Source: an uncultured Dehalococcoidia bacterium
GTDB taxonomy: Bacteria; Chloroflexota; Dehalococcoidia; Lucifugimonadales; UBA3495
Length of the DNA: 64,000 bases
Reading direction: 5' to 3'
Assembly: GCA_964502995.1 (NCBI GenBank)
Contig: CAZCZB010000001.1
Coordinates: forward strand, 45,854-109,853
Part shown: positions 4,227-21,624 of the stretch, piece by piece
Numbering within the stretch: position 1 is the stretch's first letter
Layout: every line of letters begins with the position of its first letter
Program-made: the position numbers and the translations under genes
The notes under the pieces: generated by a model
Databases searched by the model: none
What the model was told of the DNA's origin: nothing
What the model saw: the letters and a program-made list of their open reading frames with translations, nothing else

Positions 4227-4442
4227 CTAAACGACCCGCTGGAGCCGGCGCTCCATGAGCGCCCAGAACTTCGACTCGTCAGCAGCTTTGTTGGCCTCCG
4301 ACCACGCGGCGGACGTGTTCACGCTCTTGGCTCGATCAGTGAGATTTTTCTCTGTGTTGAACGCCAACGTCTTGCTCCGCACAACGTCCGCGACCGTCAT
4401 GTTGTCCTCGATCCAACGAATCATGTTGCTGATAGTGGCCAT
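4227..4442 (-). CDS. small hypothetical protein (71 aa)
   Basis: Starts at internal ATG 4442 (MATISNMIRWIEDN...), preceded by GCAAGGAGAUC from the hammerhead-a leader. The longer track ORF (to 4640) would run through the ribozyme. Confidence 0.55.
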   Translation of the reverse strand: MATISNMIRWIEDNMTVADVVRSKTLAFNTEKNLTDRAKSVNTSAAWSEANKAADESKFWALMERRLQRVV

Positions 4443-4475
4443 CGTGTGATCTCCTTGCGGGGCAGGTGTAGGAAT

Positions 4476-4528
4476 CCCGCGACCCGCCGGCTGGCGGGTT
4501 TCGCCGTCGCTACGGCTCATCAGGCGGG
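4476..4528 (-). ncRNA. hammerhead ribozyme, type I (copy a)
   Basis: Minus strand: CCCGC CUGAUGA GCCGU-AGCG-ACGGC GAA A-CCCGCC-AGCC-GGCGGG-U C^GCGGG. Full catalytic core. Predicted cleavage between 4481 and 4480. Confidence 0.85.
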
Positions 4529-4738
4529 CTGGCTGCAATGTTGGGTGTTGAAGCCGTGTACCTGGCACCAATCCCTTACCGGCGTACCGGTGGAGCTTTG
4601 GCACGGAACCTGCGGAGTCCCGAGGTTGGCCTTCCAGCACTTGGGGCAGTCCTGCTGGCTCCAGTACTCGACCGTCTTCGGCAGCGCTTTGCCCAGGGAC
4701 TCCCGAGCGCGGTCGATGAGGACCTGGGGCGCCCGCAT
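4520..4738 (-). CDS. small Cys-containing protein, probably 5'-truncated
   Basis: 72 aa from ATG 4738, ending ...HGFNTQHCSQPA with its UGA inside the hammerhead core. The frame stays open and protein-like up to 4876 (..FKKKYETILDLDYLEG M..) with no ATG, GTG or TTG. Confidence 0.5.
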   Translation of the reverse strand: MRAPQVLIDRARESLGKALPKTVEYWSQQDCPKCWKANLGTPQVPCQSSTGTPVRDWCQVHGFNTQHCSQPA

Positions 4739-5011
4739 CCCCTCCAGATAGTCCAGGTCGAGGATGGTCTCGTACTTCTTCTTGAACGGGGAGGAAATTT
4801 CGCTACTCCGGATCAGATGGACCAGTAGCTGAAAGCCGCCAATCCCGTGACGAATTGCGTCTCGGTGTTTCTGGAGTCAGCCGGCCTTTGGGAGTGAGCA
4901 AATCCTAGGCAGACCAGCACCGTGCAAAGTCGCGGAAATCAGGCAACTAAAGCAGGGAACTCCGGTACCTAGGAGTTTTCGTCGAAATTGGACTCGTGGT
5001 GACCACAATCG

Positions 5012-7480
5012 CTAGGTCACCAACTTGTCCCCCAAATGCCCCCGCAAAGAATCTGTGGCATCTTGAGCGTCCCACTTCAAACGAATAATTTTCTCCACGT
5101 CGTCGCTGATATGGGACACCTCATTGCGGTCGTCATGAACAGGTAACACTAGATCTCGCCACCGGTCTGCGAGATTGGGCAGAGTGGTGTCGGTAAATAC
5201 GTGCCCGCTCATTTGCGCCTGGACGAACTCTGAAGACAGCAACGCCAGCAAGTAAAACGGAGTGATGCCATGCCGGTTTTGAACATTGACGACTCGTATG
5301 GTCAGCAGTTCCCGAGTTAGCAGGACATTTTTGTCCCTGCTGGATGCCATTGCCACGGTTCCTATCCTGTAGCTTCCACGCCTCACCATGATGATGTCGC
5401 CTTCTTCCGGTAGGCGCTTGTTTTTGGTCATTCTGCAGAACGTATCAATAGGCACCAAGGACACCGGATTGCGGTACATCTCCCAATTCACGATGTCCTT
5501 CACCCGAATGTAGGGGATAGTCCCTTGTCCCTTAGCAGTCGCGGGCGGAGACCCGTGACCATCCCAGCACTGGATGACTCCTTTTTCTTCCAGTTGCCCC
5601 AAGGTGATCCCGGTCCGACCTGTCGGGACATTGACTGGTCGGGCTTTTTTCGAGAGGTAGTACGACGGAACCAACGCGTTGCGGTCAACGTCAGAGTAAG
5701 GGACCGTAAACGTGAACTGGTTACCAGGGTCACCCGGGTTGTGAAGTTCGCCCTTGACGACGGCGATGTCATCCCATATCTCGGCTGTTCCAGTCCTGTA
5801 CAAAGTTTTGCCGTTATGGTCATGCCCCATCTCTTCTGGCACTGCCATGACGATGGTGTCTTGCTGAGGCACGCCTTTCTCCAGCACCAACAGGCAGGTC
5901 TTGGCATTGCAGTAGGGCCGGAACGTGTTGTGTGGTAGCTGGACAACCGCTTTGAGGTTGTTGTTTTTCATAATGAATTGGCGGAGGTAGCCGAGCTGCT
6001 GACCGTGAAGCACTGTTTCAGGCAACACGATTGCCAGCGTACCTTCGTCCAGTAGCATGTCCAAGCATCGCTCAACGAACAGAACGTAAGGGTCTCGGGC
6101 GATTACCGACCGGGTCATCTGGTATTCACCACTCTGCTTTTCCAACTTCCACTTGTGCCCGAGTTCGAAATTCGCACAATCAGACGTGAGGACCTTAGTC
6201 TTTGTCCCAAATGGCGGGTTTGTCAGCACGAAGTTGAACCGCCGGAAATTGTTTCCAACGACGAACTTGGCTTTGGCTGGGTCCGTGAAATGATCAGCCT
6301 CGTGTAGCGAATTGTCGTGGACGACGTTGCTTTTGCCGTCGCCGGCAATGGACATGTGCGCTTTCGCGATTTTCACGAGATCCGATTCTTTGTCGATCCC
6401 GAACAAGGTACGTGCCGCCATGGATTTCTTGATACCTTCGAGTTGGGCTGAGCCCTTGTACCTAGGATCCTGATCCATTTCCCGCCAAATATGGTGCATC
6501 GCCTGAATGAGAAATCCACCAGACCCACAAGCTGGATCACATACCGTCTCGTTAGGTTTAGGTGCAGCGATCTCGACAGCCAACTCCACTACGTTCCTTG
6601 GCGTAAAGAATTCTCCTTTTTCGCCAACGAGACGCGACTCAGCGAAAACTTCAAAAGCGTCCCCCACAACATCGGTATCAGTGGACAGCAGGCTGCCTCT
6701 CTCGAGTTGACCCACGACCCAAGCGGTCGAACGTGCGTCCAGCGTGACTGTATCACCCTCCAGGAACACTCCGTCGCTCTGCAGGTCCTCCTTCACGCGT
6801 TCGAACAGACCGTCGATTCTCTGTTTTACATCTTCGGGGTCCTCACCAAACTGGACGCGAAAATCTGGCGGAAGACTCAAAAAACTCTTCTCATCTTCGA
6901 TCTTGCAAAAGATCAATTTGATCATTTCAGCGCCGAGCTTTTCGCGGCGACTGATGTTCGTGTTCGCATACAGATTATTCAGGATGCGGCGAAAAGCAGT
7001 GATGAGGTCGGCACGCTGGAATGGTGCCAACTCCGACTTTTTGATACGTCCAATGTCAGCAATCGTTTGTCCACGGGCAGGGATGTTGTAAAGGGAACCT
7101 TCCAACACCGCATTCTGGCTGACGTCCTTGAACAGGTACTCAATGTCGTTCCCGTTCGTCCAGACTGCCCAGACGGCCGATGTGGCGGTCATATACGATT
7201 TGAGCTGAGCTATCCCGTCGTCCCGCTCTGGCCTTTTGGTTTCGACAATTCCCCACACGTCCCGGGCAGGGTCACGCCCCGAGGCTGGCCTGTAGACCAC
7301 GATGTCAGCCTTGTCGGCGAAATAGCCTGATCCACGAGGAATCTGCACCTCAATGTCCAGTTCGCTCTTGCGATAGCCATAACTCTCGATCAGCACGCGC
7401 TCGTAATCTTGGCGCACCCGTTCTTCAGGCTTCGACAGGTCAATGGACTTGCCCGTCGCAAAGTCTTTCGATTTCGCCAT
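5012..7480 (-). CDS. single-chain type IIG-like restriction-modification enzyme (PD-(D/E)xK HSDR_N-like nuclease + N6-adenine methylase + target-recognition region)
   Basis: Motif I DPACGSGGFL and motif IV LTNPPFG. N-terminus YGYRKSELDIEVQIPRGSGYFADKADIVVY...GIVETKRP resembles the type I R-subunit N-terminal nuclease fold. Start placed at ATG 7480 (MAKSKDF); the track ORF extends to 7666. Confidence 0.8.
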   Translation of the reverse strand: MAKSKDFATGKSIDLSKPEERVRQDYERVLIESYGYRKSELDIEVQIPRGSGYFADKADIVVYRPASGRDPARDVWGIVETKRPERDDGIAQLKSYMTATSAVWAVWTNGNDIEYLFKDVSQNAVLEGSLYNIPARGQTIADIGRIKKSELAPFQRADLITAFRRILNNLYANTNISRREKLGAEMIKLIFCKIEDEKSFLSLPPDFRVQFGEDPEDVKQRIDGLFERVKEDLQSDGVFLEGDTVTLDARSTAWVVGQLERGSLLSTDTDVVGDAFEVFAESRLVGEKGEFFTPRNVVELAVEIAAPKPNETVCDPACGSGGFLIQAMHHIWREMDQDPRYKGSAQLEGIKKSMAARTLFGIDKESDLVKIAKAHMSIAGDGKSNVVHDNSLHEADHFTDPAKAKFVVGNNFRRFNFVLTNPPFGTKTKVLTSDCANFELGHKWKLEKQSGEYQMTRSVIARDPYVLFVERCLDMLLDEGTLAIVLPETVLHGQQLGYLRQFIMKNNNLKAVVQLPHNTFRPYCNAKTCLLVLEKGVPQQDTIVMAVPEEMGHDHNGKTLYRTGTAEIWDDIAVVKGELHNPGDPGNQFTFTVPYSDVDRNALVPSYYLSKKARPVNVPTGRTGITLGQLEEKGVIQCWDGHGSPPATAKGQGTIPYIRVKDIVNWEMYRNPVSLVPIDTFCRMTKNKRLPEEGDIIMVRRGSYRIGTVAMASSRDKNVLLTRELLTIRVVNVQNRHGITPFYLLALLSSEFVQAQMSGHVFTDTTLPNLADRWRDLVLPVHDDRNEVSHISDDVEKIIRLKWDAQDATDSLRGHLGDKLVT

Positions 7481-7686
7481 GATGCCACCCCCAACGCCGT
7501 CGACGTCGACAGCTCGTGGTTTCGCAGCAAGACCGAACCGCCTGCAGGCGCTGACAGTCCGTACCATGCGATGTGATGTTATCACAAAACTCTCGGCCCT
7601 TTGATGCAGACGAACGCTCCTACCGGGGTAGCGGGAGAAACAATAGAGTTCGTCCTCGTCGGCCAATCGGCGTTAATGTGCTTCAC

Positions 7687-9174
7687 CTACGCCGCCTGTT
7701 GAGCGGCGTTGAGTTCGTGGAGCACCAGCGCCGCCACGACGCCCGGCTCAACGCTCTGCTCTTCCCGACGCTTGGAACCTTTGGCAGGCGGCATCCTGAT
7801 CCTCATGTGCCGCATGTGGACGTAGTCGTCGGCCTTCAGGTGGGCCAGCGCCGTGGCCAAGTAGGTCAGCGTCGCCATCGCCACGTGCAGCGACACCTTC
7901 TGGATGTTCAGGTAGCGGTGGGTGTCCAGCAGCCTGCTGTGCTTGGCACTGCTGAAGTGCCGCTCGATGATCGGCCGCTTCTTGTACTCGGCCTTCCATT
8001 CGTCCGAACAGCGGGGCAGCAGGCCCACAATCCGCAACAGCCGACCCTCGGTCTTCTCGTAGTGGGCGTAATCGCAATGCCTCGTAAACTGCACGCTGTC
8101 CTTCAGGTGGCAACCCTCGGCGGGACACCCGAACAGGTGCCCCTGCTCTGGATCAGTCTCGACGTACTCCATGGACTTACCGCCCACGCAGGTCGGCCGG
8201 CCATCAGCGTCATAAATGCCGTCGTACCGCCGCTCGCCGGTTTCCTTGTCCTTCTCGGGCAGCCGGACCGCGATCACTGGCATCATGCCCACGTCGATGA
8301 CGTGCCGGATGTTGTCCAATTTGTCGTAGCCCTTGTCGCCCAGGAAGTAGTGCGGCCTCAGTTCGGGGTACAGGACCAAGCAGTCATCAAGGTCCTCGAC
8401 CATCACCGCCACGTCGCTGGCGTTGGCTGGACGGGTCCTGGCGAACATCGGCAATCCGTAGTTGGAGTCTGCGACGACATCAATCGAGTAGCCGAAGTAC
8501 AGCTCGTCCTTGCTGTCCTTCTGGCCCGACTCCGCGCTGTCGCCTTTGGGCTTGGACTTGCTCTTCTTGGAATTGCGGCCTTTGCGTCCCTTGCTGGAGC
8601 GGGCATTCTTGGCGGTGCGGTGTCCCCACTTGGCGTCCGTATCCTTGGACGGTATCTCGTCACCCGTCTTCCGGCTCTTGCGACTTGGCCGTGCCCACGC
8701 CTCAACGTCGGTGCTGTCGATGACCAGCGAGTGTCCCAGCGGCGGCTTATCGGCAGGGACGATGCCGGCTTCGCGCAGCCGTTCGATCTCGCCTCGGCAT
8801 TCAAGGAACACTTCGGCGATGATGGGATCGAAGGTGTCTCGATGCGCGGCCAGTTTCTTCTTGAATCGGCTGTAGGCCCCTTCACTGGGGGCGCATTCGA
8901 GGTCGCAGATGCCCAGCAGGCGGTCGTCGCTGCCCAAGCGGTTCAGGAAGCCGTTGGCGTAGCGCTCATTGAGCGCGAACTGCATCACGAAAGCAGCCAG
9001 CATGGGCAAAGCTGTGTAGCCTGGGTTTCCGCCGCGCTCGTGGGGCGCGTCCAAGGTCTCCGCCAGAGGGCCGGCACGGGATACTACACCCCCAACCACG
9101 CCTTCGAGGAAGCCGTAGCCGCTCTTGGGGGGTTGTTTAGGTAATGGTGTATGCTTAAAATAGCAGTCGCCCAC
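7687..9174 (-). CDS. IS4/IS5-superfamily DDE transposase (DUF772-like N-terminus)
   Basis: 495 aa. GNPGYTALPMLAAFVMQFALNERYANGFL resembles the DUF772 N-terminus. FLGDKGYD and YKKRPIIERHFSSAKH give the Y-2-R-3-E-6-K signature. I could not define the IS ends by eye. Confidence 0.85.
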   Translation of the reverse strand: MGDCYFKHTPLPKQPPKSGYGFLEGVVGGVVSRAGPLAETLDAPHERGGNPGYTALPMLAAFVMQFALNERYANGFLNRLGSDDRLLGICDLECAPSEGAYSRFKKKLAAHRDTFDPIIAEVFLECRGEIERLREAGIVPADKPPLGHSLVIDSTDVEAWARPSRKSRKTGDEIPSKDTDAKWGHRTAKNARSSKGRKGRNSKKSKSKPKGDSAESGQKDSKDELYFGYSIDVVADSNYGLPMFARTRPANASDVAVMVEDLDDCLVLYPELRPHYFLGDKGYDKLDNIRHVIDVGMMPVIAVRLPEKDKETGERRYDGIYDADGRPTCVGGKSMEYVETDPEQGHLFGCPAEGCHLKDSVQFTRHCDYAHYEKTEGRLLRIVGLLPRCSDEWKAEYKKRPIIERHFSSAKHSRLLDTHRYLNIQKVSLHVAMATLTYLATALAHLKADDYVHMRHMRIRMPPAKGSKRREEQSVEPGVVAALVLHELNAAQQAA

Positions 9175-9683
9175 AACGATTTTTCTCGGTCCGCGGGGGC
9201 ACCAGGCCGCTTGGTTTGTGAGAGATCCAAGCGGTCAAAATTATGTTCTATTTTGACTGGTGACATTATACCCGGAGGCCCTTCCTGCCTCAACCGAAAA
9301 CAGGGGGTTCGGGCCGTTTTTGAGTACAAAAAGTGCTCATTTCGAGCAGGGTAGGGCGATTGCGCAACGGCCCGGCCGGGCGTTCCTAGGGCGCAGTTAA
9401 GGCCCCGAGTGCACCCTGATTTTTGCCCCAGCGAAAAATGGATGCCCCAGGGCGTCCGTAGACGGCCCGTATTGGCCGTTCCGGGATTCCATGCGGTATT
9501 ATTCGACGGAGTCGGAAAAATCGCTCAGGGGCCGGATATGGCGATTTTCGGGGGCATTTTCGACGGTGCGCCCGGGGCGATTTCGGGACGCCGGCAGGGG
9601 CCGGCAATCAGCGGTTACCCGGAAAAATCGGGTCTGTGGCGGATTACGAAAAGCGTCGCTTCGCTGGATGATATACGTCCCGG

Positions 9684-9803
9684 TCAGCTCGGGGGCGGAG
9701 TAGCGAAATTTCCTCTGAACGGGTTGAACTTCTTGACCAGCCTGGTGGCCTCGTGGCCGCAGCGGTGAAGCACGACCGTGCTGGCTTGGCTTTTGGTGGT
9801 CAT
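9684..9803 (-). CDS. short ORF (39 codons) behind hammerhead-b leader; possibly the 5' remnant of a disrupted gene
   Basis: My translation: MTTKSQASTVVLHRCGHEATRLVKKFNPFRGNFATPPPS*. Good SD (GCAAGGAGAGAGACC AUG). Followed by ~500 nt with no convincing ORF. Confidence 0.3.
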   Translation of the reverse strand: MTTKSQASTVVLHRCGHEATRLVKKFNPFRGNFATPPPS

Positions 9804-9835
9804 GGTCTCTCTCCTTGCAGGGTTGGTGTAGGTAT

Positions 9836-9891
9836 CCCGCGACGGCCCGTAGGTTGGGGCCGTTTCGCCGTCTCACGGCTCATCAGGCAGG
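9836..9891 (-). ncRNA. hammerhead ribozyme, type I (copy b)
   Basis: CCUGC CUGAUGA GCCGU-GAG-ACGGC GAA A-CGGCCC-CAACCUAC-GGGCCG-U C^GCGGG. Predicted cleavage between 9841 and 9840. Confidence 0.85.
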
Positions 9892-10092
9892 CTGGTTCTC
9901 GGAGTTTGCCAAGCAGTCTTCGCAGTTCACCATGTAGCCTGCCGAGCTGTAGACCACGTAGTGCTCTCCCGCCATAGTGGACTGGCCCATGGCATAGTGG
10001 CGGGTCGTGACCTCGGCCAAACAGGCGGGCCGGGAGCTACCAACGCACTCTGTCAAATGGAAGGTAGCGCGCTTCTCGAACTTCTCAAACAT
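9883..10092 (-). CDS. small Cys-containing hypothetical protein
   Basis: 69 aa ending ...SENQPA, with its UGA being core nucleotides U4-G5-A6 of hammerhead b. SD AAGGAGAGAGACC before ATG 10092. Confidence 0.55.
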   Translation of the reverse strand: MFEKFEKRATFHLTECVGSSRPACLAEVTTRHYAMGQSTMAGEHYVVYSSAGYMVNCEDCLANSENQPA

Positions 10093-10134
10093 GGTCTCTC
10101 TCCTTGCCTTGTGAACTAGCGTTCTGATACGATA

Positions 10135-10162
10135 ACGATAGCAGACCGACCAGTGGTGTAAA
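10135..10162 (-). promoter_or_regulatory. candidate promoter TTTACA-N16-TATCGT (TGC extended -10)
   Basis: Minus strand: CCCCTTTACACCACTGGTCGGTCTGCTATCGT. Nearly identical copy at 18145-18172. Confidence 0.4.
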
Positions 10163-10367
10163 GGGGTTTGCGGAAAATGCGAACCGTGGCATTGGGACGC
10201 CGGCCAGCGAGCGCATCGGACGCCCTGGGCTGCTACGGCGGTAAGACCGTCTGCAAAAAAACCAGTTCAGGATAGGTAGGAAGCGGGGGTTCTGTAACAT
10301 TTGCGGGGTAGTTCCCTGTTCTAAAAACTCGTGCTGGGATTTGGCGGTTTTAGAACGCTACCCCCCC

Positions 10368-10397
10368 TTGACAGGGTGTATCCGTAGGGTGTATCCT
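10368..10397 (+). promoter_or_regulatory. candidate promoter TTGACA-N18-TATCCT overlapped by a tandem direct repeat GGGTGTATCC x2
   Basis: TTGACA at 10368-10373 and TATCCT at 10392-10397. The spacer and -10 consist of GGGTGTATCC-gta-GGGTGTATCC. Confidence 0.45.
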
Positions 10398-10427
10398 ATG
10401 GGTACATCAAAAACGGAGGAACCCAAA

Positions 10428-10928
10428 ATGGCCACCACCGTCAACGGCTACGAGATAAAACCTGGCGCAGACCTGCGCCATGCGTGCCTGACCGGCGCGG
10501 ACCTGTACCGCGCGGACCTGTACCGCGCGGACCTGTACCGCGCGAACTTGCGCGGCGCGGACCTGATCGGCGCAGACCTGCGCCATGCGTGCCTGACCGG
10601 CGCGGACCTGTACGGCGCGGACCTGTACCGCGCGACCCTGCGCCATGCGGACCTGTACGGCGCGAACTTGCGCGGCGCGAACCTGTACGGCGCGAACCTG
10701 TACGGCGCGAACCTGACCTGCGCGGACCTGATCGGCGCGGACCTGCGCCGTGCGTGCACCGGCGCGAACCTGCGCCATGCGGACCTGACCGGCGCGGACC
10801 TGCGCCGCGCGGACCTGTACGGCGCGGACCTGACCGGCGCGGACCTGACCGGCGCGAACCTGTACCGCGCGGACCTGTACGGCGCGACCCTGCCCTCTGG
10901 ATGGCACGCAGTCAGCTGCTGGTACTGA
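10428..10928 (+). CDS. pentapeptide-repeat protein
   Basis: 166 aa from ATG 10428 (RBS GGAGGA). Nearly the whole length is A(D/N)L(Y/R/I/T)(G/R/C) pentads (ADLYR ADLYR ANLRG ADLIG...). Built from near-identical 15-nt DNA units. Confidence 0.85.
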   Translation: MATTVNGYEIKPGADLRHACLTGADLYRADLYRADLYRANLRGADLIGADLRHACLTGADLYGADLYRATLRHADLYGANLRGANLYGANLYGANLTCADLIGADLRRACTGANLRHADLTGADLRRADLYGADLTGADLTGANLYRADLYGATLPSGWHAVSCWY

Positions 10929-10932
10929 TGCG

Positions 10933-11106
10933 ATGCCCCCCTACGCCGATCCCGCTGACCGCCGCGCATTCGAGCGGTTGCGCGCAGAGCGTCGCCGCAA
11001 CGCCGGCCTCTGCGCCAACTGCAACAGCAAGGCCGAACCTGGCCACTCACGCTGCGCCAAGTGCGCGGAACGCCGCAAGAACCGCTTGACTACCCCGCAA
11101 ATGTAA
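10933..11106 (+). CDS. small zinc-ribbon-like protein (57 aa)
   Basis: Below the track cutoff. My translation: MPPYADPADRRAFERLRAERRRNAGLCANCNSKAEPGHSRCAKCAERRKNRLTTPQM*. Has CxxC...CxxC. Its stop lies inside IR-R of the cassette. Confidence 0.45.
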   Translation: MPPYADPADRRAFERLRAERRRNAGLCANCNSKAEPGHSRCAKCAERRKNRLTTPQM

Positions 11107-11330
11107 CAGAACCGAAGCGGGACTTCCATAAATCCTGCGTGTGCGGCCTTGTGGCAAAAATCGCCAGTCCGAACCGTTCGAGAAAAACCGCTCCAGGATG
11201 GTAAAGGGGCGATGCGGCGAAACCCTCGCGTGTGCAGCCTTGTGGCCTGTGTGCGCCGCCTTGCGAAATTGCCTTAGAGCGGCGCCGAACGGAGCTTGTT
11301 GGGCCGGAGCGTGGGGGACGGCGAGACAAC

Positions 11331-11368
11331 AAAAAAAGGCCGGGGCAGGGTTCAACCCTGCCCCGGCC
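11331..11368 (-). terminator. rho-independent terminator (minus strand)
   Basis: Perfect 13-bp stem GGCCGGGGCAGGG/CCCTGCCCCGGCC with a 5-nt loop. An A7 run on the plus side gives U7 after the hairpin on the minus strand, downstream of the 11403..11924 gene. Confidence 0.7.
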
Positions 11369-11402
11369 TCGGGATCCCTTTTCGGTGATGGAGGTAGGCG
11401 CT

Positions 11403-11924: not shown

Positions 11925-11952
11925 GATATTCCTCCAATCGTCATTAGCGAAT

Positions 11953-12315: not shown

Positions 12316-12324
12316 GTCAGTCCG

Positions 12325-13602: not shown

Positions 13603-13605
13603 GGC

Positions 13606-14262: not shown

Positions 14263-14298
14263 TAGACCATATTAGCATCGATTAGGTGAGATTTTGGC

Positions 14299-15057
14299 TT
14301 ACAGTTTCAAACCCCGTAGTTTCTTCAACCGGGCCAACCGGTCTTTCTGGCGCTTGATGTTGCCGCCGAGGTTCTGCAGGACATAAGGCGGGAACGTCTT
14401 GCGGCCGTGATTGGCGGCGGCGAATTGGAGATCCCTCGTTTCCTTCTCGGTCAACCCCAGGCTGTCCAGGGGTTCGCCCTTGCGGATGCGCCGGTTCAGG
14501 TCCTTGATCCTTTCCCGCTGCTCTTCCAGCATGGCGATGCGCTCGGTCAGCGCTTCGATCACGTCGGGGTCATCGTCGTAGATGGACTGGTCCAGCTGTC
14601 GCCGGATTCCCTCGGCCGCCTGCTGGTGGCGGTCCGCCATTCGGTGATGCTCAATTCCTTCAAACGCCTTCCGCTCCGAGGTTCCCAGCGCTTTCCGGTG
14701 GGCGCGCTCCGAGTGGTGTCCCACCAGGATGGGCTGGCCCAGCGGGATTCCCTCCACGGCCTGGCGGCTGGCTTCCCATGCCGCCTCTCCCTTCCGTTCT
14801 CGGCTGTCGGCCCACTCCTCCCGCCGCTCGGCCCGCCGATCCAATCGGTCGCGGGTCGCTCCCGACGCCGGCTCCGTTTGATCGGTGGACCATACGCCGG
14901 CGATGACCTCCTCGACCAGTACGGCAGTCCAGGTCTTGCCCTTGCGGGTCGTAACCTGGACCGTCTCACCGGTCACTCCACCGGGGCCTACCAGCACTCC
15001 CCAACCTAGTCCGCCGGGCAGTTTGCGCGGCGTTGCGTTCTTCAATTCGTTGGACAT
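14299..15057 (-). CDS. DUF3560-like phage/plasmid protein
   Basis: Start at ATG 15057 (MSNELKN; RBS GGAAAGGAGGAT). GQPILVGHHSERAHRKAL plus Arg/Glu-rich helices match my recollection of DUF3560. Confidence 0.65.
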   Translation of the reverse strand: MSNELKNATPRKLPGGLGWGVLVGPGGVTGETVQVTTRKGKTWTAVLVEEVIAGVWSTDQTEPASGATRDRLDRRAERREEWADSRERKGEAAWEASRQAVEGIPLGQPILVGHHSERAHRKALGTSERKAFEGIEHHRMADRHQQAAEGIRRQLDQSIYDDDPDVIEALTERIAMLEEQRERIKDLNRRIRKGEPLDSLGLTEKETRDLQFAAANHGRKTFPPYVLQNLGGNIKRQKDRLARLKKLRGLKL

Positions 15058-15080
15058 TCTATCCTCCTTTCCAATTCCCG

Positions 15081-15671
15081 CTACACGATTCGCCAGAAAA
15101 CCTGGGCGATGGTCTCGTCTTCCCGTTGCTGGTGGATCAGGTGGTTTGCCAGGTGATCTACCCAATGGACGCCGAACCGGTCTCGTCGGGGATCGCCTGT
15201 GGCGTTGTCGATGACGCAGTGCTCATAGATCCACTGCAACGCATCGGCCAACCTTTCCTCGTGGTTCGACCGGCTCCGGTGACAGAAAACGAAGTCGGCG
15301 CCGAACTTCACCAGTTTCACCTCCTCGGGCATCAGGTCAATCAGCATCCTGTTGTCCTCGCCCTGGTGGTGCCCCATGCTGCCCTCGGTACCGGGATCGA
15401 AATGCACCAGCACCGTACCGTCGGGCTTCAGGTAGTGGGTGCGGTAATAGGCCAGGTCAATTGACCCGTCGAACCCGCCGCCCTCGTACTGCCTGACGAC
15501 GGCTTCGACCGCGGATTCCAGGGGGCCGTCCTCCCATCTGACGTTGATGCTGCCACCGCCGGCGTACCTCTCGGACCGGACACTGAACTTCCGGCCTGGA
15601 AAGGCTGACTTCAATCGCTGGCGGACGAGCTTGGCCGTCTCCGCCGGATTCAGGTAGGTGTAGTCAGACAT
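15081..15671 (-). CDS. conserved hypothetical phage/plasmid protein
   Basis: 196 aa (LVRQRLKSAFPGRKFSVRSERYAGGGSINVRWEDGP...). RBS GAAGGAGG before ATG 15671. Family name not asserted. Confidence 0.6.
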   Translation of the reverse strand: MSDYTYLNPAETAKLVRQRLKSAFPGRKFSVRSERYAGGGSINVRWEDGPLESAVEAVVRQYEGGGFDGSIDLAYYRTHYLKPDGTVLVHFDPGTEGSMGHHQGEDNRMLIDLMPEEVKLVKFGADFVFCHRSRSNHEERLADALQWIYEHCVIDNATGDPRRDRFGVHWVDHLANHLIHQQREDETIAQVFWRIV

Positions 15672-15886
15672 CGTGGTCTTGCCTCCTTCTACTCACAGGG
15701 TTGCCGTCGCGCGCTGGCGGTGGAAAAGTAGTACCGCCGGCAGACGTAGCATTGGCGTCCGCCCAACTTGTCGGGCGGCGCCAGTCGGTGCTGCCGTCCG
15801 GAGACACACGCCCGGCAGGGGCAATGGTCGCCGTGCTCTCACCAAGGGCCCAGCAACGTTGGCATTGGTATCTGCCCTTCCATCGC

Positions 15887-16180
15887 TCAGGCTATCCTGG
15901 CGGTTGCCCGTTCGTAGTCGCGGCTTCGCCGCAGGATCCGGTAGATGGAGCGATCAGTAACCTGAAACCGTACCGCCGCTTCCCTGGTCGTCAGGCCCTC
16001 ATTCCTGATAATCGCCGCAACGATCAGGTCGCGCTCCCGGCGTTGCTGCAACCGGTAATCAGCCAGCGCGTCGGGATTGTCGTAGAGACATTCCGGCAAC
16101 GGGCAATTCAGGCACGAGGGGAAATACTTGCAGCCGGTGTCCTTGTAATAGTCCGGCCAGTGATTTTCCATCTGATCCAT
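15887..16180 (-). CDS. small HTH DNA-binding protein
   Basis: Start at ATG 16180 (MDQMENH; RBS GAGGAA). The C-terminal LTTREAAVRFQVTDRSIYRILRR is a typical HTH. N-terminal Cys cluster. Confidence 0.6.
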   Translation of the reverse strand: MDQMENHWPDYYKDTGCKYFPSCLNCPLPECLYDNPDALADYRLQQRRERDLIVAAIIRNEGLTTREAAVRFQVTDRSIYRILRRSRDYERATARIA

Positions 16181-16259
16181 GTCCTTGTTCCTCTGACCTG
16201 CCTTGTTCAACGCCGGGCGGTCAACCCCGGTCGGACGCCCCGTGTCCGGGGCGTTTCGG

Positions 16260-16433
16260 CTATCCCTCGGCAACCGTTACTTCGATGGCCTTGGGAGCGC
16301 CGCCGGGGAACGCGGACTTGCTGATGTACACCGTGCTGACGGCGGCGTTTTCGTCCACTGCGGCGTACCGGTAGGTGCCCTTGGTCTCCTTGTCCTGTTC
16401 CATTCGAATGCTGATTGGTGTAATCTTTGCCAT
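16260..16433 (-). CDS. small hypothetical protein (57 aa)
   Basis: Below the track cutoff. My translation: MAKITPISIRMEQDKETKGTYRYAAVDENAAVSTVYISKSAFPGGAPKAIEVTVAEG*. RBS AAGGAGG before ATG 16433. Confidence 0.5.
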   Translation of the reverse strand: MAKITPISIRMEQDKETKGTYRYAAVDENAAVSTVYISKSAFPGGAPKAIEVTVAEG

Positions 16434-16460
16434 GGTTCTTCCTCCTTGGCAGGTGAATCT

Positions 16461-16483
16461 GGGGGCCGGACATTCCGGCCCCC
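16461..16483 (-). other. intercistronic GC hairpin immediately after dnaN stop
   Basis: GGGGGCCGG-aaugu-CCGGCCCCC (9 bp) with no U tract. Followed by an SD for the next gene. Confidence 0.5.
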
Positions 16484-16490
16484 GTGGTGG

Positions 16491-17756
16491 CTACCACTGG
16501 ACGTACATGGGCATTACCACGTACTTGAAGGTTTCATCGTCTGGGAGGGTCCAAAGGCCGGGGCTGCTGGGATTGTTTGCCGACAGGACCAACGGCCCCT
16601 CAACGACCTTGAGCAATTCGGACACGTACTTCGAGTTGAAGGCGATGCGGCCGAGATTTTCGTCCTCACCATCCAGTCCCATGACTTCGGCGCACTGGGC
16701 CTCCCGCTTGGCGTAGCCGACATCCTCGGTCCTGGCCGACACCCGGATGATTCCCGCCATCGCCGGCCCGTCTTCAGTGCGTTCTTCCTCGGGGATGGCC
16801 GTCTGCTCCGTCCAGAAGCGGATGATGTTGCTACCGTCCACCGCGTACACTGCGGCGCTTTCCACGGCGCCCTTCAAGACTTTGGCGTCGGTCTGCACCT
16901 GCCACGTCGGGCTGTCGGGAATCAGGGGCTCATAGTTGGGAAATTCGCTGGCGATCATCTGGGTCAGCACCAGATAGCTGCCGACCTCGAACTGGGCCTT
17001 GCTGTTGTCACGGTCGATGTTCAACCGCACCGGGTCTTCGGTGGACTTGAGCAGTTTCTCCATCGCCGTGAAGGTGCGGGCCGGAATCACCACCTGTAGC
17101 GGATCCTCCATCGGCTCGGCCTCCGGTGCAATCTCCCCCGTCTGGCAGGCCGCCTCAATCAGGTTGCCCCGCTGGCAGGCCAACCGGAAACCGTCGGCTG
17201 CGGCCAGCTCGTAACCGTTGTCGTCGAGCTTGAGGCAAATGCCAGTCAACACCGGCCTGGACTCGTCCTTCGCCGCCGCCAGTTGCACCCGCCGGATGTT
17301 CCCGGCCAGCTCGTCAGGGTCGAAGAGAACCGCCACGGGTTGGTTGAACTCCGTCTCTATCGTCGGCGGGAAGTCCGCAACAGCAACGCCGTTGAACGTG
17401 GCCTCGGTGTCGTTGACGCCAGACCGGATGGTCAGAACCAGGTTGCTGCCGCCGATGCCCGGCTCGGCTTCCTCATCGACGGGGCCGACCTCAAGGTCCA
17501 GACGGTCGGAGGCGAGGGTGCGGACGAAATCGTTCAGCATCTTGTGGCTGACGCAGATCCCGCCCTCATCTTCCACCATCGCTCCGACCCAGGTGCTGAA
17601 CCCCTTCTCAAGGTCAGTGGTATCCACCCGAAGCATTCCACGGTCGGTGGTCAGTCTCACCATCTTGCAGACGGGGATGCCATCCCCGCTGGCGGTGAAC
17701 GGCTTGGCCGCCGCCAGCGCCCTGGTGAAGTTTTCCTGTAACAACGAGACTCTCAT
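16491..17756 (-). CDS. dnaN: DNA polymerase III beta sliding clamp
   Basis: 421 aa. The start (LLQENFTRALAAAKPF...VRLTTDRGMLRVDTTDLE), the three-domain length and the ending ...FKYVVMPMYV fit DnaN. Confidence 0.8.
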   Translation of the reverse strand: MRVSLLQENFTRALAAAKPFTASGDGIPVCKMVRLTTDRGMLRVDTTDLEKGFSTWVGAMVEDEGGICVSHKMLNDFVRTLASDRLDLEVGPVDEEAEPGIGGSNLVLTIRSGVNDTEATFNGVAVADFPPTIETEFNQPVAVLFDPDELAGNIRRVQLAAAKDESRPVLTGICLKLDDNGYELAAADGFRLACQRGNLIEAACQTGEIAPEAEPMEDPLQVVIPARTFTAMEKLLKSTEDPVRLNIDRDNSKAQFEVGSYLVLTQMIASEFPNYEPLIPDSPTWQVQTDAKVLKGAVESAAVYAVDGSNIIRFWTEQTAIPEEERTEDGPAMAGIIRVSARTEDVGYAKREAQCAEVMGLDGEDENLGRIAFNSKYVSELLKVVEGPLVLSANNPSSPGLWTLPDDETFKYVVMPMYVQW

Positions 17757-17786
17757 GGTCTTCTCCTTTGCGGGTAGTGTAGGTAT

Positions 17787-17842
17787 CCCGCGACGGCCCG
17801 GAGGCCGGGCCGTTTCGCCGTCGCTACGGCTCGTCAGGCGAG
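17787..17842 (-). ncRNA. hammerhead ribozyme, type I (copy c)
   Basis: CUCGC CUGACGA GCCGU-AGCG-ACGGC GAA A-CGGCCCGG-CCU-CCGGGCCG-U C^GCGGG. Predicted cleavage between 17792 and 17791. Leader and SD feed dnaN. Confidence 0.85.
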
Positions 17843-17850
17843 CTGGGCGT

Positions 17851-18102
17851 CTAGTTCTCGGTCGTCTTCAAGGTGCCGTCGGCGTTGAGTTCCTCGGCAA
17901 AAACGTGGCCAGCGCTGAAAGACTCCCAAGTCCGTGGAACTGTCATCGGGGGAAGTGGCACGTCGTTATGCAGGGTTGCGGGGCAGTAGCGGCAGATCAT
18001 GTCAATGGGGTCGCCGTTGCGGTCGCGGGGAGAATCGGGCGCGGCGGTGAAGGAATGCCGACCCCTTTCCTCAAAGTATTCGCAGATGATGGTGGCGTCC
18101 AT
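17851..18102 (-). CDS. small hypothetical protein (83 aa)
   Basis: Start at ATG 18102 (MDATIICEYFEERG; RBS GGCAAGGAG). The UAG stop lies just before hammerhead c. Confidence 0.55.
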   Translation of the reverse strand: MDATIICEYFEERGRHSFTAAPDSPRDRNGDPIDMICRYCPATLHNDVPLPPMTVPRTWESFSAGHVFAEELNADGTLKTTEN

Positions 18103-18144
18103 GTTCCTACTCCTTGCCTTGTGAACTAGCGTTCTGATACGATA

Positions 18145-18172
18145 ACGATAGCAGGCCGACCGGTGGTGTAAA
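18145..18172 (-). promoter_or_regulatory. candidate promoter TTTACA-N16-TATCGT (copy of 10135-10162)
   Basis: Region 18111-18180 is ~97% identical to 10101-10170 (2 mismatches by eye). Confidence 0.4.
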
Positions 18173-18226
18173 GGGGTTTGGCGGGGAGTTGCGGAAATTC
18201 CTGAAAATGCGAACCTTGGCAATAAG

Positions 18227-18397
18227 TCACGGACATTGCAGCCGGTTAACGGGCAGGCGTGGATCGTAGGGGCGACGGCATTGGCAACACATCAGGGAGC
18301 CGTCGGGCATTCGGTAACAGGCCAGGCCGTTCCAAGGGTGATTGGCGCGACAGGCGCACAGCAGGGCAATGCTGGCGGTCTCGTCGGTGATCGTCAT
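18227..18397 (-). CDS. small Cys-rich protein (56 aa)
   Basis: Below the track cutoff. My translation: MTITDETASIALLCACRANHPWNGLACYRMPDGSLMCCQCRRPYDPRLPVNRLQCP*. RBS UAGGAGAG before ATG 18397. Confidence 0.4.
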   Translation of the reverse strand: MTITDETASIALLCACRANHPWNGLACYRMPDGSLMCCQCRRPYDPRLPVNRLQCP

Positions 18398-18432
18398 CTG
18401 CGTGCTCTCCTAAATCGGTAGGTCGGAATCCA

Positions 18433-18840
18433 TTAGGCGTCGGCGCAACCGAAGCCCGTGCAGCGTGAGGCCATGCGGTCAAAGACATTAGGTTCGCCGC
18501 GCTGGTGGCACCCGACCTCGACCTCGTACATTGACCCTCCCCAGTTTTTGTCCAGAGGGACATGGGTGAGGTAATGGCCCCTCGCGCACAGGTACACAAT
18601 GTGCTTTTTGTAGTGCCGCGCGATTGCCCTGGCTGGACCCACGGGCCGGATTTGAGCGTCCTTGTTCGCGCAATCGGCGTTGACCTGCCCATCGTCGCGG
18701 TTACCGCAGTCGTCGCACAGGGGCAGCCTGCAACGCGGGCAAAACTTGTGGCCGTCCATGACCCAATTCCACACGCTGGCGGGAGCCGGGTCAATTGGAC
18801 GGGTACAGTGTGAGCATTGGTGCATCGCTGCTGTAGTCAT
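18433..18840 (-). CDS. Cys-rich hypothetical protein
   Basis: 135 aa with several CxxC pairs (CSHC, CPRC, CDDC). Confidence 0.55.
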   Translation of the reverse strand: MTTAAMHQCSHCTRPIDPAPASVWNWVMDGHKFCPRCRLPLCDDCGNRDDGQVNADCANKDAQIRPVGPARAIARHYKKHIVYLCARGHYLTHVPLDKNWGGSMYEVEVGCHQRGEPNVFDRMASRCTGFGCADA

Positions 18841-18852
18841 GGGTTTCCTGGT

Positions 18853-19209
18853 CTAGCCAGCGCGTTCGGTCGTGTGGCAGATGGTGCACTCGCGGATACT
18901 GTCGCGCCCTACCACGCCATAAACCCAATCGTGGCTGGCGGGGACGCACTGGTCTTCGTGGAATAGCGTACCGCCGCCGTCCTCCCTGTTCTCATCCGAG
19001 TGCCGCTGGCACAGGCTGTCCAGCCCCACCGACCGGAACGAGCAAACCTCGCCCTGCCGGGTTGCGGCGCAACACTGGTCCGCCCACTTGCCCGCGTACT
19101 CCACGAAAATCGGGATGACATAGCAGACCCGGTAGCTGAACGGCTCCCCCTTGTAGCCATTGGCCGTCAATTCGATTGTGACGGGTTCTTTGCTGATCGT
19201 GATAATCAT
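18853..19209 (-). CDS. hypothetical protein (118 aa)
   Basis: Start at ATG 19209 (MIITISKEPV), behind the hammerhead-d leader GCAAGGAGAGAACC. Confidence 0.55.
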   Translation of the reverse strand: MIITISKEPVTIELTANGYKGEPFSYRVCYVIPIFVEYAGKWADQCCAATRQGEVCSFRSVGLDSLCQRHSDENREDGGGTLFHEDQCVPASHDWVYGVVGRDSIRECTICHTTERAG

Positions 19210-19239
19210 GGTTCTCTCCTTGCGGGTTGGTGTAGGGAT

Positions 19240-19298
19240 CCCGCGACCCGCCGGTCCTGACCGGCAGGTTTCGCTGTCGATACAGCTCATCAGGCGGA
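19240..19298 (-). ncRNA. hammerhead ribozyme, type I (copy d)
   Basis: UCCGC CUGAUGA GCUGU-AUCG-ACAGC GAA A-CCUGCCGG-UCAGGA-CCGGCGGG-U C^GCGGG. Stem II is compensatory relative to copies a-c. Predicted cleavage between 19245 and 19244. Confidence 0.85.
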
Positions 19299-19391
19299 CT
19301 GAATTTGGATCGCTCCGTCCCGTATCTGCTCCTGAATGACGGACTTGGTGCGCTCGAAGTCGTCCTGGGCCGCTTCCAACGAGTCGTGAGA

Positions 19392-19583
19392 CTAGCAGTA
19401 GAAGCCCGGGTTGCCGCGGACCTGAACGGTCAATATGAACACCTCCCGGGACGGCGTAACGCCCTGGAAAATGAGGCCCATCGCGGTGCCGGGCTCAAGG
19501 TCGGCGGTGGACGAATGTGTCTCCCAGGTGGCGACGATGCCGTCGTTGGGATGTCCGTAACGTCTCCAAGTGGTCTCGCTCAT
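19392..19583 (-). CDS. small hypothetical protein (63 aa) ending at an in-frame UAG
   Basis: Track ORF. After UAG (19394..19392) the same frame stays open for 33 codons to the UGA inside hammerhead d (see findings). Confidence 0.5.
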   Translation of the reverse strand: MSETTWRRYGHPNDGIVATWETHSSTADLEPGTAMGLIFQGVTPSREVFILTVQVRGNPGFYC

Positions 19584-19595
19584 GCTGGTCCTCCG

Positions 19596-20258
19596 TCAGA
19601 ACTCCGCGTGTTCGTTGCCCTGGGCGTCGACGTAGGTCGGGAACTCCGGCAGCTCGCCTCGGGCTTCCTCAGCCCTGAAGGCTGCCAGCGCCTTGTCAGC
19701 AACTTCCCGGATTACCGGGTACTTTTCGAGCAACTTCTTCGTCCCGTTTGCACTCTCGTTCCACCAGATCCCGACCTCGGGATGGTTGTCGTAGAACATG
19801 CAGACAGCGGACAGCAATTCCTGCATCATCGGAACCGTCATGACGTCCATTTCTACCGAGTCGCCGTCAGCGGGGTGCAAATCCTCGTACCTCTCTTCGA
19901 CGGTTTGGATCGCCGCGACGAAGATCCGTGCCAGGTCCGTCCCGAGGATGGCCTGGGACTGGTCGTTCCATTGCAGCAGGGTCGGCCGGCGATCAGCCAT
20001 GGCCAACGTCTCGAATTCGGCCTCAGTGACTTCGACGAGCACCTGGTAACGCCTTTCACCGTCCGGCACAGAAACCCAAAGGGATGCTGCGCGGGGAACC
20101 GTAACGGACCGGTCGAGGACGGTATGCTCGCCTCCCGTGCCGATAGTCCAGTCTTCCCAGACATCCTGGGGCACACGGCGCAGTTCAACTTCGTCCAGGC
20201 TATCGACCGCGGCAAAGTCGCCGGTCGGCAACACCGCTATCAACTGATACTGACCCAT
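19596..20258 (-). CDS. hypothetical protein with C-terminal ELPEFPTYV..GNEHAEF tail
   Basis: 220 aa. SD AAGGAGAGAAUA from the hammerhead-e leader. Confidence 0.65.
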   Translation of the reverse strand: MGQYQLIAVLPTGDFAAVDSLDEVELRRVPQDVWEDWTIGTGGEHTVLDRSVTVPRAASLWVSVPDGERRYQVLVEVTEAEFETLAMADRRPTLLQWNDQSQAILGTDLARIFVAAIQTVEERYEDLHPADGDSVEMDVMTVPMMQELLSAVCMFYDNHPEVGIWWNESANGTKKLLEKYPVIREVADKALAAFRAEEARGELPEFPTYVDAQGNEHAEF

Positions 20259-20298
20259 TATTCTCTCCTTGCTGCGGGCAGGTGATTTTGTAGGCTAT

Positions 20299-20357
20299 CC
20301 CGCGATCCGCCTGACGGCGGATTTCGGCCCGGCGCCACCGGGCCATCGTCAGGCAGG
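20299..20357 (-). ncRNA. hammerhead ribozyme, type I (copy e; extra U after A9)
   Basis: CCUGC CUGACGA U GGCCCGG-UGGCG-CCGGGCC GAA A-UCCGCC-GUCA-GGCGGA-U C^GCGGG. Predicted cleavage between 20304 and 20303. Confidence 0.75.
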
Positions 20358-20795
20358 GTCATCAACCAGCGAATACCGAGGTTCGCGCCAGGTGTCGTCA
20401 TCATCGTCGTTCCGGGTTGACCATGGGCAGCGGCGGGGGGCGCACGGGACAGCGCGTTCGCCTTCCGGCCCATCGCGTCCATCGCCGTCTTCGCGCATCC
20501 TCAAATGGTCGTTGCCGCAGGCGTGCCAGACCGTTTCTTCACACTGGGGCGTCCCGTCGGTGTACCAGCGTTTGATACAACTAACGCCGTTCCTCATGGC
20601 GGGGGCGAAAGCGATGTTGAGGTCTTCCACACGGACGGACGCGGACGGCTGGCTTGGGGCACGGGAGCATTGGCGGCAGCGGTCGCAGGCCAGACAGACG
20701 TGCAAGAACCCACCGCAGGCTTTACAGGGACGCTTCCACGGTTCGAAGCGATGACCTTCGGGGCGGATGCAAGGGAGAAATGGACGCTTGTTCAT
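20349..20795 (-). CDS. Cys-rich hypothetical protein
   Basis: 148 aa ending ...LVDDPA, with its UGA in the hammerhead-e core. RBS AAGGAGG before ATG 20795. Confidence 0.6.
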   Translation of the reverse strand: MNKRPFLPCIRPEGHRFEPWKRPCKACGGFLHVCLACDRCRQCSRAPSQPSASVRVEDLNIAFAPAMRNGVSCIKRWYTDGTPQCEETVWHACGNDHLRMREDGDGRDGPEGERAVPCAPRRCPWSTRNDDDDDTWREPRYSLVDDPA

Positions 20796-20859
20796 GGCGG
20801 AACCTCCTTATTCGCGGTTGGTTGGCTTCTCTGCCGGGACAAGACGCCCCGATTCGTGG

Positions 20860-21150
20860 TCAGGCGGGCTGGCTGCAATTTTGGGTGTTGAACCCGTGTG
20901 CCTGTAACGTCGGCGGAATGATCGGGCCGATGTCGCCAAACAGCGTATGGGTATCATCAATCGGCGGCGCGTCGGGAAGATCGCATACCTCGCCATTGTC
21001 CTCACACCAGGTGCAGTAGTAACGCTCCCAATCCCGGTACTCGGACGGGCCGAATTGCAGCCGTTCAGCGTGTCCACAGACAGGACACTGCAGCAGTTTC
21101 AGCCCGCAGATGGTTTCGATCACGGCTGGCGTTGTGGGGATGGTCGTCAT
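20860..21150 (-). CDS. small zinc-ribbon protein (96 aa)
   Basis: Start at ATG 21150 (MTTIPTTPAV; RBS GAAGGAG). Has CPVC and CTWC. The C-terminus AHGFNTQNCSQPA parallels the 4520..4738 product. Confidence 0.55.
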   Translation of the reverse strand: MTTIPTTPAVIETICGLKLLQCPVCGHAERLQFGPSEYRDWERYYCTWCEDNGEVCDLPDAPPIDDTHTLFGDIGPIIPPTLQAHGFNTQNCSQPA

Positions 21151-21212
21151 GGGTTCGACTCCTTCTTGTATGTGTTGGACAGTATTTTCGGCGCCTTTTA
21201 TCGCAAGTCGGA

Positions 21213-21530
21213 CTAGCGGCCCTTGCGCAATCGCCCCGACAGTCCCGCCCGTTTCAAGGCCGCATTGACCCTTCGGCGGTTGAGGGAGAACATCTGGCGG
21301 GAGTTGCCGAACGTCCAGTCCACGGCATCGCCCATTTCCACGAAGAAATTGTGGGCCTTCCTGCCACAGTCCGCGCAGATTGGTCCGCCCTCGCCGTCGC
21401 AATGCACGGCCAGCTGATAGGCATAGTCTCCGGTCAGAATCTCGGCCGGGTGCCGGGCTTCTCCGCAGGTGTTGCAAGTCGCGGACGAATCCACTTTGCG
21501 CAAGCCTTCCAGAATTTCGGCAACGGTCAT
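21213..21530 (-). CDS. small Cys-containing hypothetical protein
   Basis: 105 aa, directly behind the hammerhead-f leader. Confidence 0.55.
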   Translation of the reverse strand: MTVAEILEGLRKVDSSATCNTCGEARHPAEILTGDYAYQLAVHCDGEGGPICADCGRKAHNFFVEMGDAVDWTFGNSRQMFSLNRRRVNAALKRAGLSGRLRKGR

Positions 21531-21563
21531 GCTGTCTCTCCCAGCGGGTAGTGAGTTTGGCTT

Positions 21564-21624
21564 CCCGCGATCCCCTGGGCCGGGGATTTCGGGCCGGGAG
21601 CCACCCGGCCCATCGTCAGGCAGG
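21564..21624 (-). ncRNA. hammerhead ribozyme, type I (copy f; extra U after A9)
   Basis: CCUGC CUGACGA U GGGCCGGG-UGGCU-CCCGGCCC GAA A-UCCCC-GGCCCA-GGGGA-U C^GCGGG. Predicted cleavage between 21569 and 21568. Confidence 0.75.

Follow-up and report, generated by a model that had tools for sequence, protein, structure and literature searches.

The window analyzed here, a 64,000-nucleotide stretch of contig CAZCZB010000001.1 from an uncultured Dehalococcoidia bacterium, carries six well-formed hammerhead ribozyme motifs on its minus strand over a span of 17 kb, and the open reading frames (ORFs) preceding five of them end, in one case behind an in-frame TAG, on a UGA formed by the ribozyme core. 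The six copies (a–f) were recovered by searching the window for the pattern CUGANGA...GAAA; a seventh match (CUGAUGAG...GAAA, 42802–42825) is without stems and was set aside as chance. Read 5' to 3', each unit begins with a 5-nt stem I 5' strand (CCCGC, CCUGC, CUCGC, or UCCGC), continues with C3-U4-G5-A6-N7-G8-A9 (CUGAYGA) and a capped stem II, and then with G12-A13-A14, a capped stem III closed by A15.1-U16.1, C17, and GCGGG. In the list below, G1.1 denotes the first nucleotide of the 3' product of cleavage, and bit scores are those of the covariance model R1 described after it.

4476–4528, minus strand: hammerhead a, type I; stem I 5' strand 4524–4528, C3 at 4523, cleavage between 4481 and 4480 (G1.1 at 4480); 46.4 bits, E 6e-11; weak Rfam HH9 match at 4476–4528
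9836–9891, minus strand: hammerhead b; C3 at 9886, G1.1 at 9840; 47.9 bits
17787–17842, minus strand: hammerhead c; C3 at 17837, G1.1 at 17791; core UGA unused as a stop; 44.4 bits
19240–19298, minus strand: hammerhead d; C3 at 19293, G1.1 at 19244; 39.8 bits
20299–20357, minus strand: hammerhead e; C3 at 20352, G1.1 at 20303; unpaired U between A9 and stem II; 62.4 bits
21564–21624, minus strand: hammerhead f; C3 at 21619, G1.1 at 21568; unpaired U between A9 and stem II; 55.0 bits

We assessed whether these elements belong to a recognized ribozyme class using core positions, topology, and covariation. Every copy carries all core positions required by the criteria of Perreault et al. 2011 (PMC3088659; C3 U4 G5 A6 N7 G8 A9, G12 A13 A14, A15.1-U16.1, and H17, here C), and all have type I topology, with stem I open (5 bp) and stems II (5–8 bp) and III (5–10 bp) capped by loops. 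Model R1, built from 90 IMG/VR sequences aligned without any window sequence and run with filters off over the whole window, matched exactly the six copies (39.8–62.4 bits, E 5e-9 to 2e-15), the next best match reaching 12.6 bits. Across the family alignment, 15 of 18 pairs vary on both sides and all three helices covary (score 0.526 vs 0.151 when shuffled), the aligned sequences having been pre-selected for pairing. The Rfam hammerhead families (RF00163, RF00008, RF02275, RF02276, and RF02277) gave no window match at their gathering thresholds; in E-value mode, only copies a and d drew HH9 matches, at 20.0 and 20.5 bits where the threshold is 52, alongside a mutated type II-like match. Judged from these sequence features, the six elements are genuine type I hammerhead ribozymes of a large phage family located between same-strand genes, and they are new members of an already known class. 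As in the clusters described in PMC3088659, several same-strand hammerheads with the consensus core flank phage genes, singly or in short blocks whose identity varies. Unlike those, the window copies score below all Rfam gathering thresholds, and that study mentions no stop codons, ORF overlap, or post-cleavage hairpin.

An unpaired U stands between A9 and the first stem II pair in copies e (20345–20352) and f (21612–21619), and in most IMG/VR family members (consensus CUGAYGA-U-GGC...). De la Pena and Flores reportedly described in 2001 an extra nucleotide at the same place, between A9 and stem II, in the plus-strand hammerhead of the viroid CChMVd; copies e and f and most of the family (consensus GAUGGC) resemble it in this respect, but the viroid ribozyme is type III, whereas the phage ribozymes here are type I and known from sequence. 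Separately, the window contains a type II hammerhead-like element (16192–16261, minus strand; 33.5 bits vs an Rfam gathering threshold of 37) with good stems III and I and a core reading UUGAACA instead of CUGAUGA (C3 and G8 changed), which is probably an inactive relic.

The initial annotation of this sequence had reported that five of the six upstream frames stop on core nucleotides U4-G5-A6, with convergent C-terminal tails, and translation reproduced those tails and coordinates exactly. Its single exception also holds, as the ORF before copy c has its own UAG, 17 nt 5' of the core UGA and in a different frame. The upstream ORFs are as follows (lengths in amino acids, aa, where given).

4520–4738, minus strand: ORF a (72 aa), ending ..HCSQPA; stop on core UGA 4520–4522; the last ~27 codons (about 4529–4616) read through a decayed hammerhead and leader
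9883–10092, minus strand: ORF b (69 aa), ending ..SENQPA; stop on core UGA 9883–9885
17851–18222, minus strand: ORF c (123 aa); own stop UAG 17851–17853, 5' of the ribozyme
19290–19583, minus strand: ORF d; 63 codons, an in-frame TAG (19392–19394), and 33 further codons ending ..IQIQSA; core UGA 19290–19292
20349–20795, minus strand: ORF e (148 aa), ending ..LVDDPA; stop on core UGA 20349–20351
21616–21900, minus strand: ORF f (94 aa), ending ..LDCQPA; stop on core UGA 21616–21618

Copy d counts as an overlap only if its TAG is read through into the 33-codon extension. In the relative L197, the homologue of ORF d has CAG at the TAG position, protein similarity extends past that position, and the intact frame runs to its own core UGA with the tail ..IEVQPA. 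A nonsense mutation, a read-through codon, or a sequence error could account for the TAG; given the intact homologue, it is a lineage-specific nonsense change or a sequence error within an overlapping ORF. A further case had not been listed in the initial annotation: ORF 20860–21150 ends ..NCSQPA on the UGA of a decayed hammerhead and is called as a gene, ending on that UGA, in public assemblies. The upstream ORFs have a third-position GC content (GC3) of 0.66–0.84, like conserved genes here, and most have a Shine-Dalgarno (SD) sequence and ATG. Recoding of UGA was set aside, as the conserved genes (clamp, ParB-like, and TnpB) are intact under the standard code. Five of six stops in one frame has p ~0.02 under random frames, which is weak evidence because the copies are related to each other (shared CAG-CCY-GCC). 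We also observed that GCAAGGAGAGAGACC-ATG (10093–10112, minus strand) leads into ORF b; it is near-identical to the leader after hammerhead b (9804–9822), with no ribozyme upstream of it.

Given the relatedness of the window copies, we turned to the wider family. Two pattern scans of IMG/VR, with stem I and stem II as their respective anchors, gave 196 loci (L001–L196), and a structural filter left 161 non-identical type I hammerheads, including the six window copies. An upstream ORF reached within 60 nt in 157 of the 161, and stop offsets were counted relative to U4.

Offset 0 (on the core UGA): 51 of 157 (32%)
Offset -1 to -7: 0 of 157 (0%)
Offset -8 to -12 (just 5' of stem I): 56 of 157 (36%)
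Offset -13 to -59: 39 of 157 (25%)
Apparent read-through: 11 of 157 (7%)

The offset-0 share was steady at 32%–34% for ORF-length thresholds of 40–150 codons and similar in both scans. Clustering on the upstream 27 nt gave 132 independent contexts, divided 45/43/37/7 among offset 0, near, far, and read-through, with the UGA frame (frame 0) used in 77 of them (58%; p = 3.5e-9 against one third). The core-UGA overlap is thus real and family-wide rather than special to the window, which stands at the high end of the family (five of six), though with copies related to each other. Isolated gut phages carry members of the family as well: an annotated coding sequence of Faecalibacterium phage FP_Brigit has as its last base the one preceding stem I, and the following coding sequence starts 27 nt past the hammerhead match.

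The initial annotation attributed the convergent tails on otherwise unrelated proteins to overlapping coding and RNA constraints. That is borne out, with the RNA dominant: the stem I 5' strand and C3 together make up the last two codons, and the tail dipeptide tracks stem I sequence family-wide. Of the 51 overlapping members, 46 have GCC as the last codon; depending on the stem I variant, the codon before it is CCC, ACC, CCU, UCC, or CUC, giving the dipeptides PA (33), TA (6), SA (3), and LA (3). Comparison at the nucleotide and amino acid levels, as the initial annotation had proposed, was carried out for ORFs a and d using relatives L197–L199 and placed the constraint on nucleotides; a search with ORF e found only itself, so the homologue comparison covers a and d. 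For example, copy d has UCC-GCC (Ser-Ala) where its L197 homologue has CCC-GCC (Pro-Ala), such that the residue differs and the pair with GCGGG is kept (U-G vs C-G). The non-overlapping copy c also carries a CAG-CUC-GCC string; since CAG is present even there, the shared glutamine is a property of the repeated RNA module rather than of the proteins.

The position of cleavage determines which product carries the stop. In type I hammerheads the scissile bond follows C17, 3' of stem III, which in the six copies is 39–48 nt 3' of the UGA. Given the order of parts (stem I 5' strand, core, stem II, GAAA, stem III, cleavage site), the 5' product retains the stop codon together with the stem II and stem III hairpins. 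The 3' product begins with the stem I 3' strand, and family members share an arrangement downstream of the cleavage site in which GCGG(G)-loop-(C)CGC is followed by a Shine-Dalgarno sequence and then a start codon. The corresponding leaders in the window are listed here.

4443–4480, minus strand: leader a; GCGGG...CCCGC hairpin, AAGGAG, ATG at 4442
9804–9840, minus strand: leader b
17757–17791, minus strand: leader c
19210–19244, minus strand: leader d
20259–20303, minus strand: leader e
21531–21568, minus strand: leader f

In these leaders, the GCGGG strand of stem I can re-pair with a second CCYGC copy just before the Shine-Dalgarno sequence, forming an alternative helix (the swap hairpin) with a perfect 5 bp in all six window copies. 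It is present in 89 of 112 GCGG-type family members, compared with about 16 after shuffling, and it covaries, in that GUGG members have CCAC and ACGG members have CCGU; members without GCGG have it in 23 of 49 cases vs 8.2 ± 1.6 when foreign arms are substituted. Minimum-free-energy folding of uncleaved RNA chose the swap hairpin over stem I in five of the six window copies. Its presence showed no association with stop position (33/51 with the stop at offset 0, 44/57 near, and 25/40 far upstream), and it is a feature separate from the stop overlap and apparently undescribed. The most economical reading, drawn from sequence and predicted folds, as is cleavage in vivo, is a post-cleavage 5' hairpin through which cleavage would become irreversible, with the 5'-OH end protected and the ribosome-binding site presented. 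A second possible contact involves loop II and the tail 3' of stem I, which have at least 4 bp of complementarity in 60% of the family vs 30% with foreign tails. This resembles the pseudoknot-stabilized hammerheads of PMC3088659, although window copies a–d have only 2–3 bp by this measure, and copy f has 5 bp.

We favor, with moderate confidence, the view that the overlap is an opportunistic and tolerated by-product of packing genes against a ribozyme whose core UGA is obligatory, and not a proven control device. Cleavage would split a polycistronic RNA into an upstream mRNA that keeps its stop and ends in two hairpins with a cyclic phosphate, and a downstream mRNA whose 5'-OH end would fold into a hairpin beside its ribosome-binding site. 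Because no stop codon can occur in stem I, a packed ORF has two places to end, just 5' of stem I or at U4-G5-A6, which is the first stop that is guaranteed. ORFs that lost their stop, or were fused to the ribozyme by deletion or recombination, would survive in the UGA frame only; entering the ribozyme in either other frame would take the ORF over the cleavage site, which plausibly explains why overlaps persist in frame 0 alone. The RNA would then fix the last two residues as Pro, Ser, Thr, or Leu followed by Ala. The initial annotation had named homologues with ORFs ending upstream, no PA tail, and an unchanged ribozyme as the case that would make the overlap incidental, and the family largely presents it, in that two-thirds of its members retain the core and stem I with an ORF that stops upstream and has no PA tail. 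Likewise, the L197 hammerhead before the homologue of gene 19596–20258 is preceded by an ORF that ends on UAG at -10.

The evolutionary route to the overlap, as we infer it, leaves several traces. A single substitution would turn the codon at -9 into a stop in 27 of 51 overlapping ORFs vs 111 of 357 upstream codons (p = 0.004), and in the window this codon is CAG in four of the five overlapping ORFs. This pattern suggests that a stop abutting stem I was lost and that ribosomes then terminated two codons on, at the core UGA as a backstop. In addition, ORFs can be seen to read through dead ribozymes. The ~27-codon tail of ORF a (about 4529–4616; CQSSTGTPVRDWCQVHGFNTQHCSQ) aligns with a degraded hammerhead and leader (CAGCCCGCC-TG...hairpin...GTC-CGCGATTGG...TACAC) and on this alignment is a tandem older ribozyme copy now read as protein. 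The same relic occurs in L197 (about 2590–2680) and upstream of the 20860 remnant; the homologue of ORF a in L198 and L199 is without it, being 27 codons shorter, in frame, and ending ..KANLGTGRPA on the core UGA. The coordinates of the remnant itself are as follows.

20796–20870, minus strand: decayed hammerhead; stem II and part of the core lost; not detected by R1

It keeps the stem I 5' strand, the UGA at 20860–20862, and a leader-like GAAGCCAACCAACCGC...AAGGAGG, such that the UGA still ends ORF 20860–21150 while the leader and its Shine-Dalgarno sequence still precede and serve ORF e. Recombination is visible as well. The L198 and L199 homologue of ORF a meets its ribozyme at another point, 27 codons earlier, and is again in frame. 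The L197 hammerhead mentioned above (1083–1159) is a chimera, with a stem II like that of copy b (9836–9891) and a stem III and leader like those of copy e (20299–20357), and its upstream ORF is unrelated. Similarity between the window and L197–L199 breaks at the ribozymes, as at mosaic boundaries, which suggests that ribozymes act as recombination joints for gene cassettes.

Several points weigh against an incidental overlap. Frame 0 is used far above the one third that pure stop loss would keep, so extra fusion events and a filter must be assumed, and direct selection for the overlap is compatible with the same excess. In relatives at 73%–85% identity, the overlap persists at the orthologous junctions a and d, and 68% of stops lie within ribosome-footprint distance of stem I, as would also be expected if ribosome placement mattered. 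Moreover, the -9 codon test amounts to one comparison, uncorrected and made with sequences that are partly related, and the family sample comes from two sequence patterns with a heuristic ORF assignment (the longest open frame reaching -60).

A different account is translation-gated cleavage, which we hold to be possible though less likely. Selection would have placed the stop in or next to stem I, and the terminating ribosome would melt the stem I 5' strand; the freed GCGGG would pair with the downstream CCYGC as the swap hairpin and turn the ribozyme off. Cleavage would then occur only on RNAs, or in time windows, without upstream translation, coupling processing and the fate of the downstream mRNA to it. 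As the initial annotation noted, a ribosome terminating at the core UGA would sit on the ribozyme, and it would necessarily unwind stem I. The ribosomal mRNA channel extends about 11–13 nt 3' of the P site, and the stop is at offset 0 or -8 to -12 in 107 of 157 cases, where a terminating ribosome covers stem I. Two mutually exclusive helices sharing the GCGGG strand both covary, the folds of uncleaved RNA prefer the swap hairpin in five of six copies, and the frame-0 excess and the conserved overlaps at junctions a and d fit as well. In trp-type leader-peptide attenuators, ribosome position selects between alternative helices; the arrangement here likewise has two mutually exclusive helices, with a stop close enough to one strand for a ribosome footprint to reach it, but its output would be self-cleavage rather than transcription termination, and its use as a switch is hypothetical. 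However, the swap hairpin is equally frequent at any stop position, a quarter of the family stops 13–59 nt upstream, window copy c and the L197 copies work with upstream stops, and compaction alone predicts the same pile-up of stops. Nor did we see tuning of the core to a stop role. N7 is the sole free core position and also the base right after the stop; UGA-C is a weak termination context and UGAUGA a tandem stop. If overlap favored the tandem UGAUGA, U should be enriched at N7 in overlapping members, but the comparison of 51 overlapping with 95 other family members gave U in 27/51 vs 51/95, with no link to stop use. We consider it unlikely that a stop inside the core, or at most 12 nt from it, is a selected design, which would amount to a ribosome-sensing ribozyme in hundreds of phage genomes. 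If it were true, translating the preceding gene would gate self-cleavage and, with it, the separation and stabilization of the mRNA for the next cistron.

The overlap could instead be an annotation artefact, with the small ORFs (b, e, f, and the extension of d) not translated to the core UGA and the tails being non-coding RNA that happens to be without stops. PHROG and Pfam gave no matches for ORFs a, b, c, e, and f, a homologue search with ORF e among 5.8 billion proteins returned only the ORF e protein itself, and the extension of d lies behind a TAG. Against this, GC3 values of 0.70–0.84 are as in conserved genes, SD and ATG sites are present, the homologues of ORFs a and d are conserved at the amino acid level up to the tail, and within the family, long ORFs (more than 130 codons) use the core UGA as their stop with the same frequency as short ones. 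Independent public gene calls also end ORF e (as an identical 148-aa protein) and ORF 20860–21150 on the same UGAs, and we regard this account as very improbable. Finally, the mechanism in the initial annotation, whereby self-cleavage strips the stop from the upstream message, which would leave non-stop mRNAs for trans-translation, is refuted by the sequence, as it would need a cleavage site 5' of the core and an mRNA 3' end upstream of any in-frame stop, when all six copies have the site 39–48 nt 3' of the UGA and the stop stays on the 5' product.

The ribozymes appear to lie in a phage replication-type or early region encoding a ParB-like protein, a repair protein, a sliding clamp, a primase-like protein, and a large methyltransferase-like protein with pentapeptide repeats. 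The ribozyme-flanked genes themselves are small and of unassigned function, as in published prophage clusters. Megablast of 4000–22000 against 50,697 phage records returned no match, and distant blastn against the phage collection matched only the pentapeptide-repeat segment of an 884-aa gene (5012–7666). This segment (6465–6900) shares 73%–80% DNA identity with genes of Ralstonia, Caulobacter, and Rhizobium phages and is the only part of 4000–11900 with matches in that collection. A scan of metagenomes with the leader pattern gave ten chance matches in ordinary genes and no relatives, a genome scan for relatives found two contigs of one metagenome-assembled genome, and a third viral scan found one relative. 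The region also contains an inserted IS607-type element (12325–14262, minus strand) comprising TnpA, with MerR-HTH and serine-recombinase parts (13606–14262), and a TnpB/OrfB_IS605 protein with a Cas12f-like TNB domain (12325–13602).

Prophage hammerhead clusters have been shown to flank genes and, in other examples, to cleave in vitro and in Escherichia coli, and a role in processing long phage transcripts into gene-length mRNAs was proposed (Perreault et al. 2011, PMC3088659), though the biological role of bacterial and phage hammerheads is still called unresolved (PMC6765202). The closest engineered counterpart to the leaders described here is RiboJ, a synthetic insulator that combines a hammerhead with a 23-nt hairpin before the ribosome-binding site (PMC7536230). 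In both, the ribozyme removes upstream RNA and a hairpin stands at the new 5' end just before the Shine-Dalgarno sequence. Unlike RiboJ, the phage arrangement is natural, its hairpin re-uses the stem I 3' strand and competes with the active fold, and the 5' strand of the ribozyme lies inside the preceding coding sequence. Within the searchable open-access literature we found no description of ORFs ending in a hammerhead core, of direct packing against the preceding ORF, or of a refolding 5' hairpin; one speculative preprint notes only that CUGAUGA holds two UGA triplets.

One practical outcome for annotation is that small proteins with RNA-dictated ..PA C-termini will appear among gene calls and that stem I will be missed wherever a ribozyme scan masks coding sequence; the U insertion next to the core may also make strict hammerhead filters reject such elements. 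For the biology of the family, the window and about 160 relatives reveal three regularities: the ribozyme is packed directly against the preceding ORF, its core UGA is the stop in one third of cases, and the strand that cleavage would release folds anew, as a covarying 5' hairpin beside the Shine-Dalgarno sequence. These regularities make two hypotheses testable, namely intercistronic processing with end protection and possible gating of that processing by translation.

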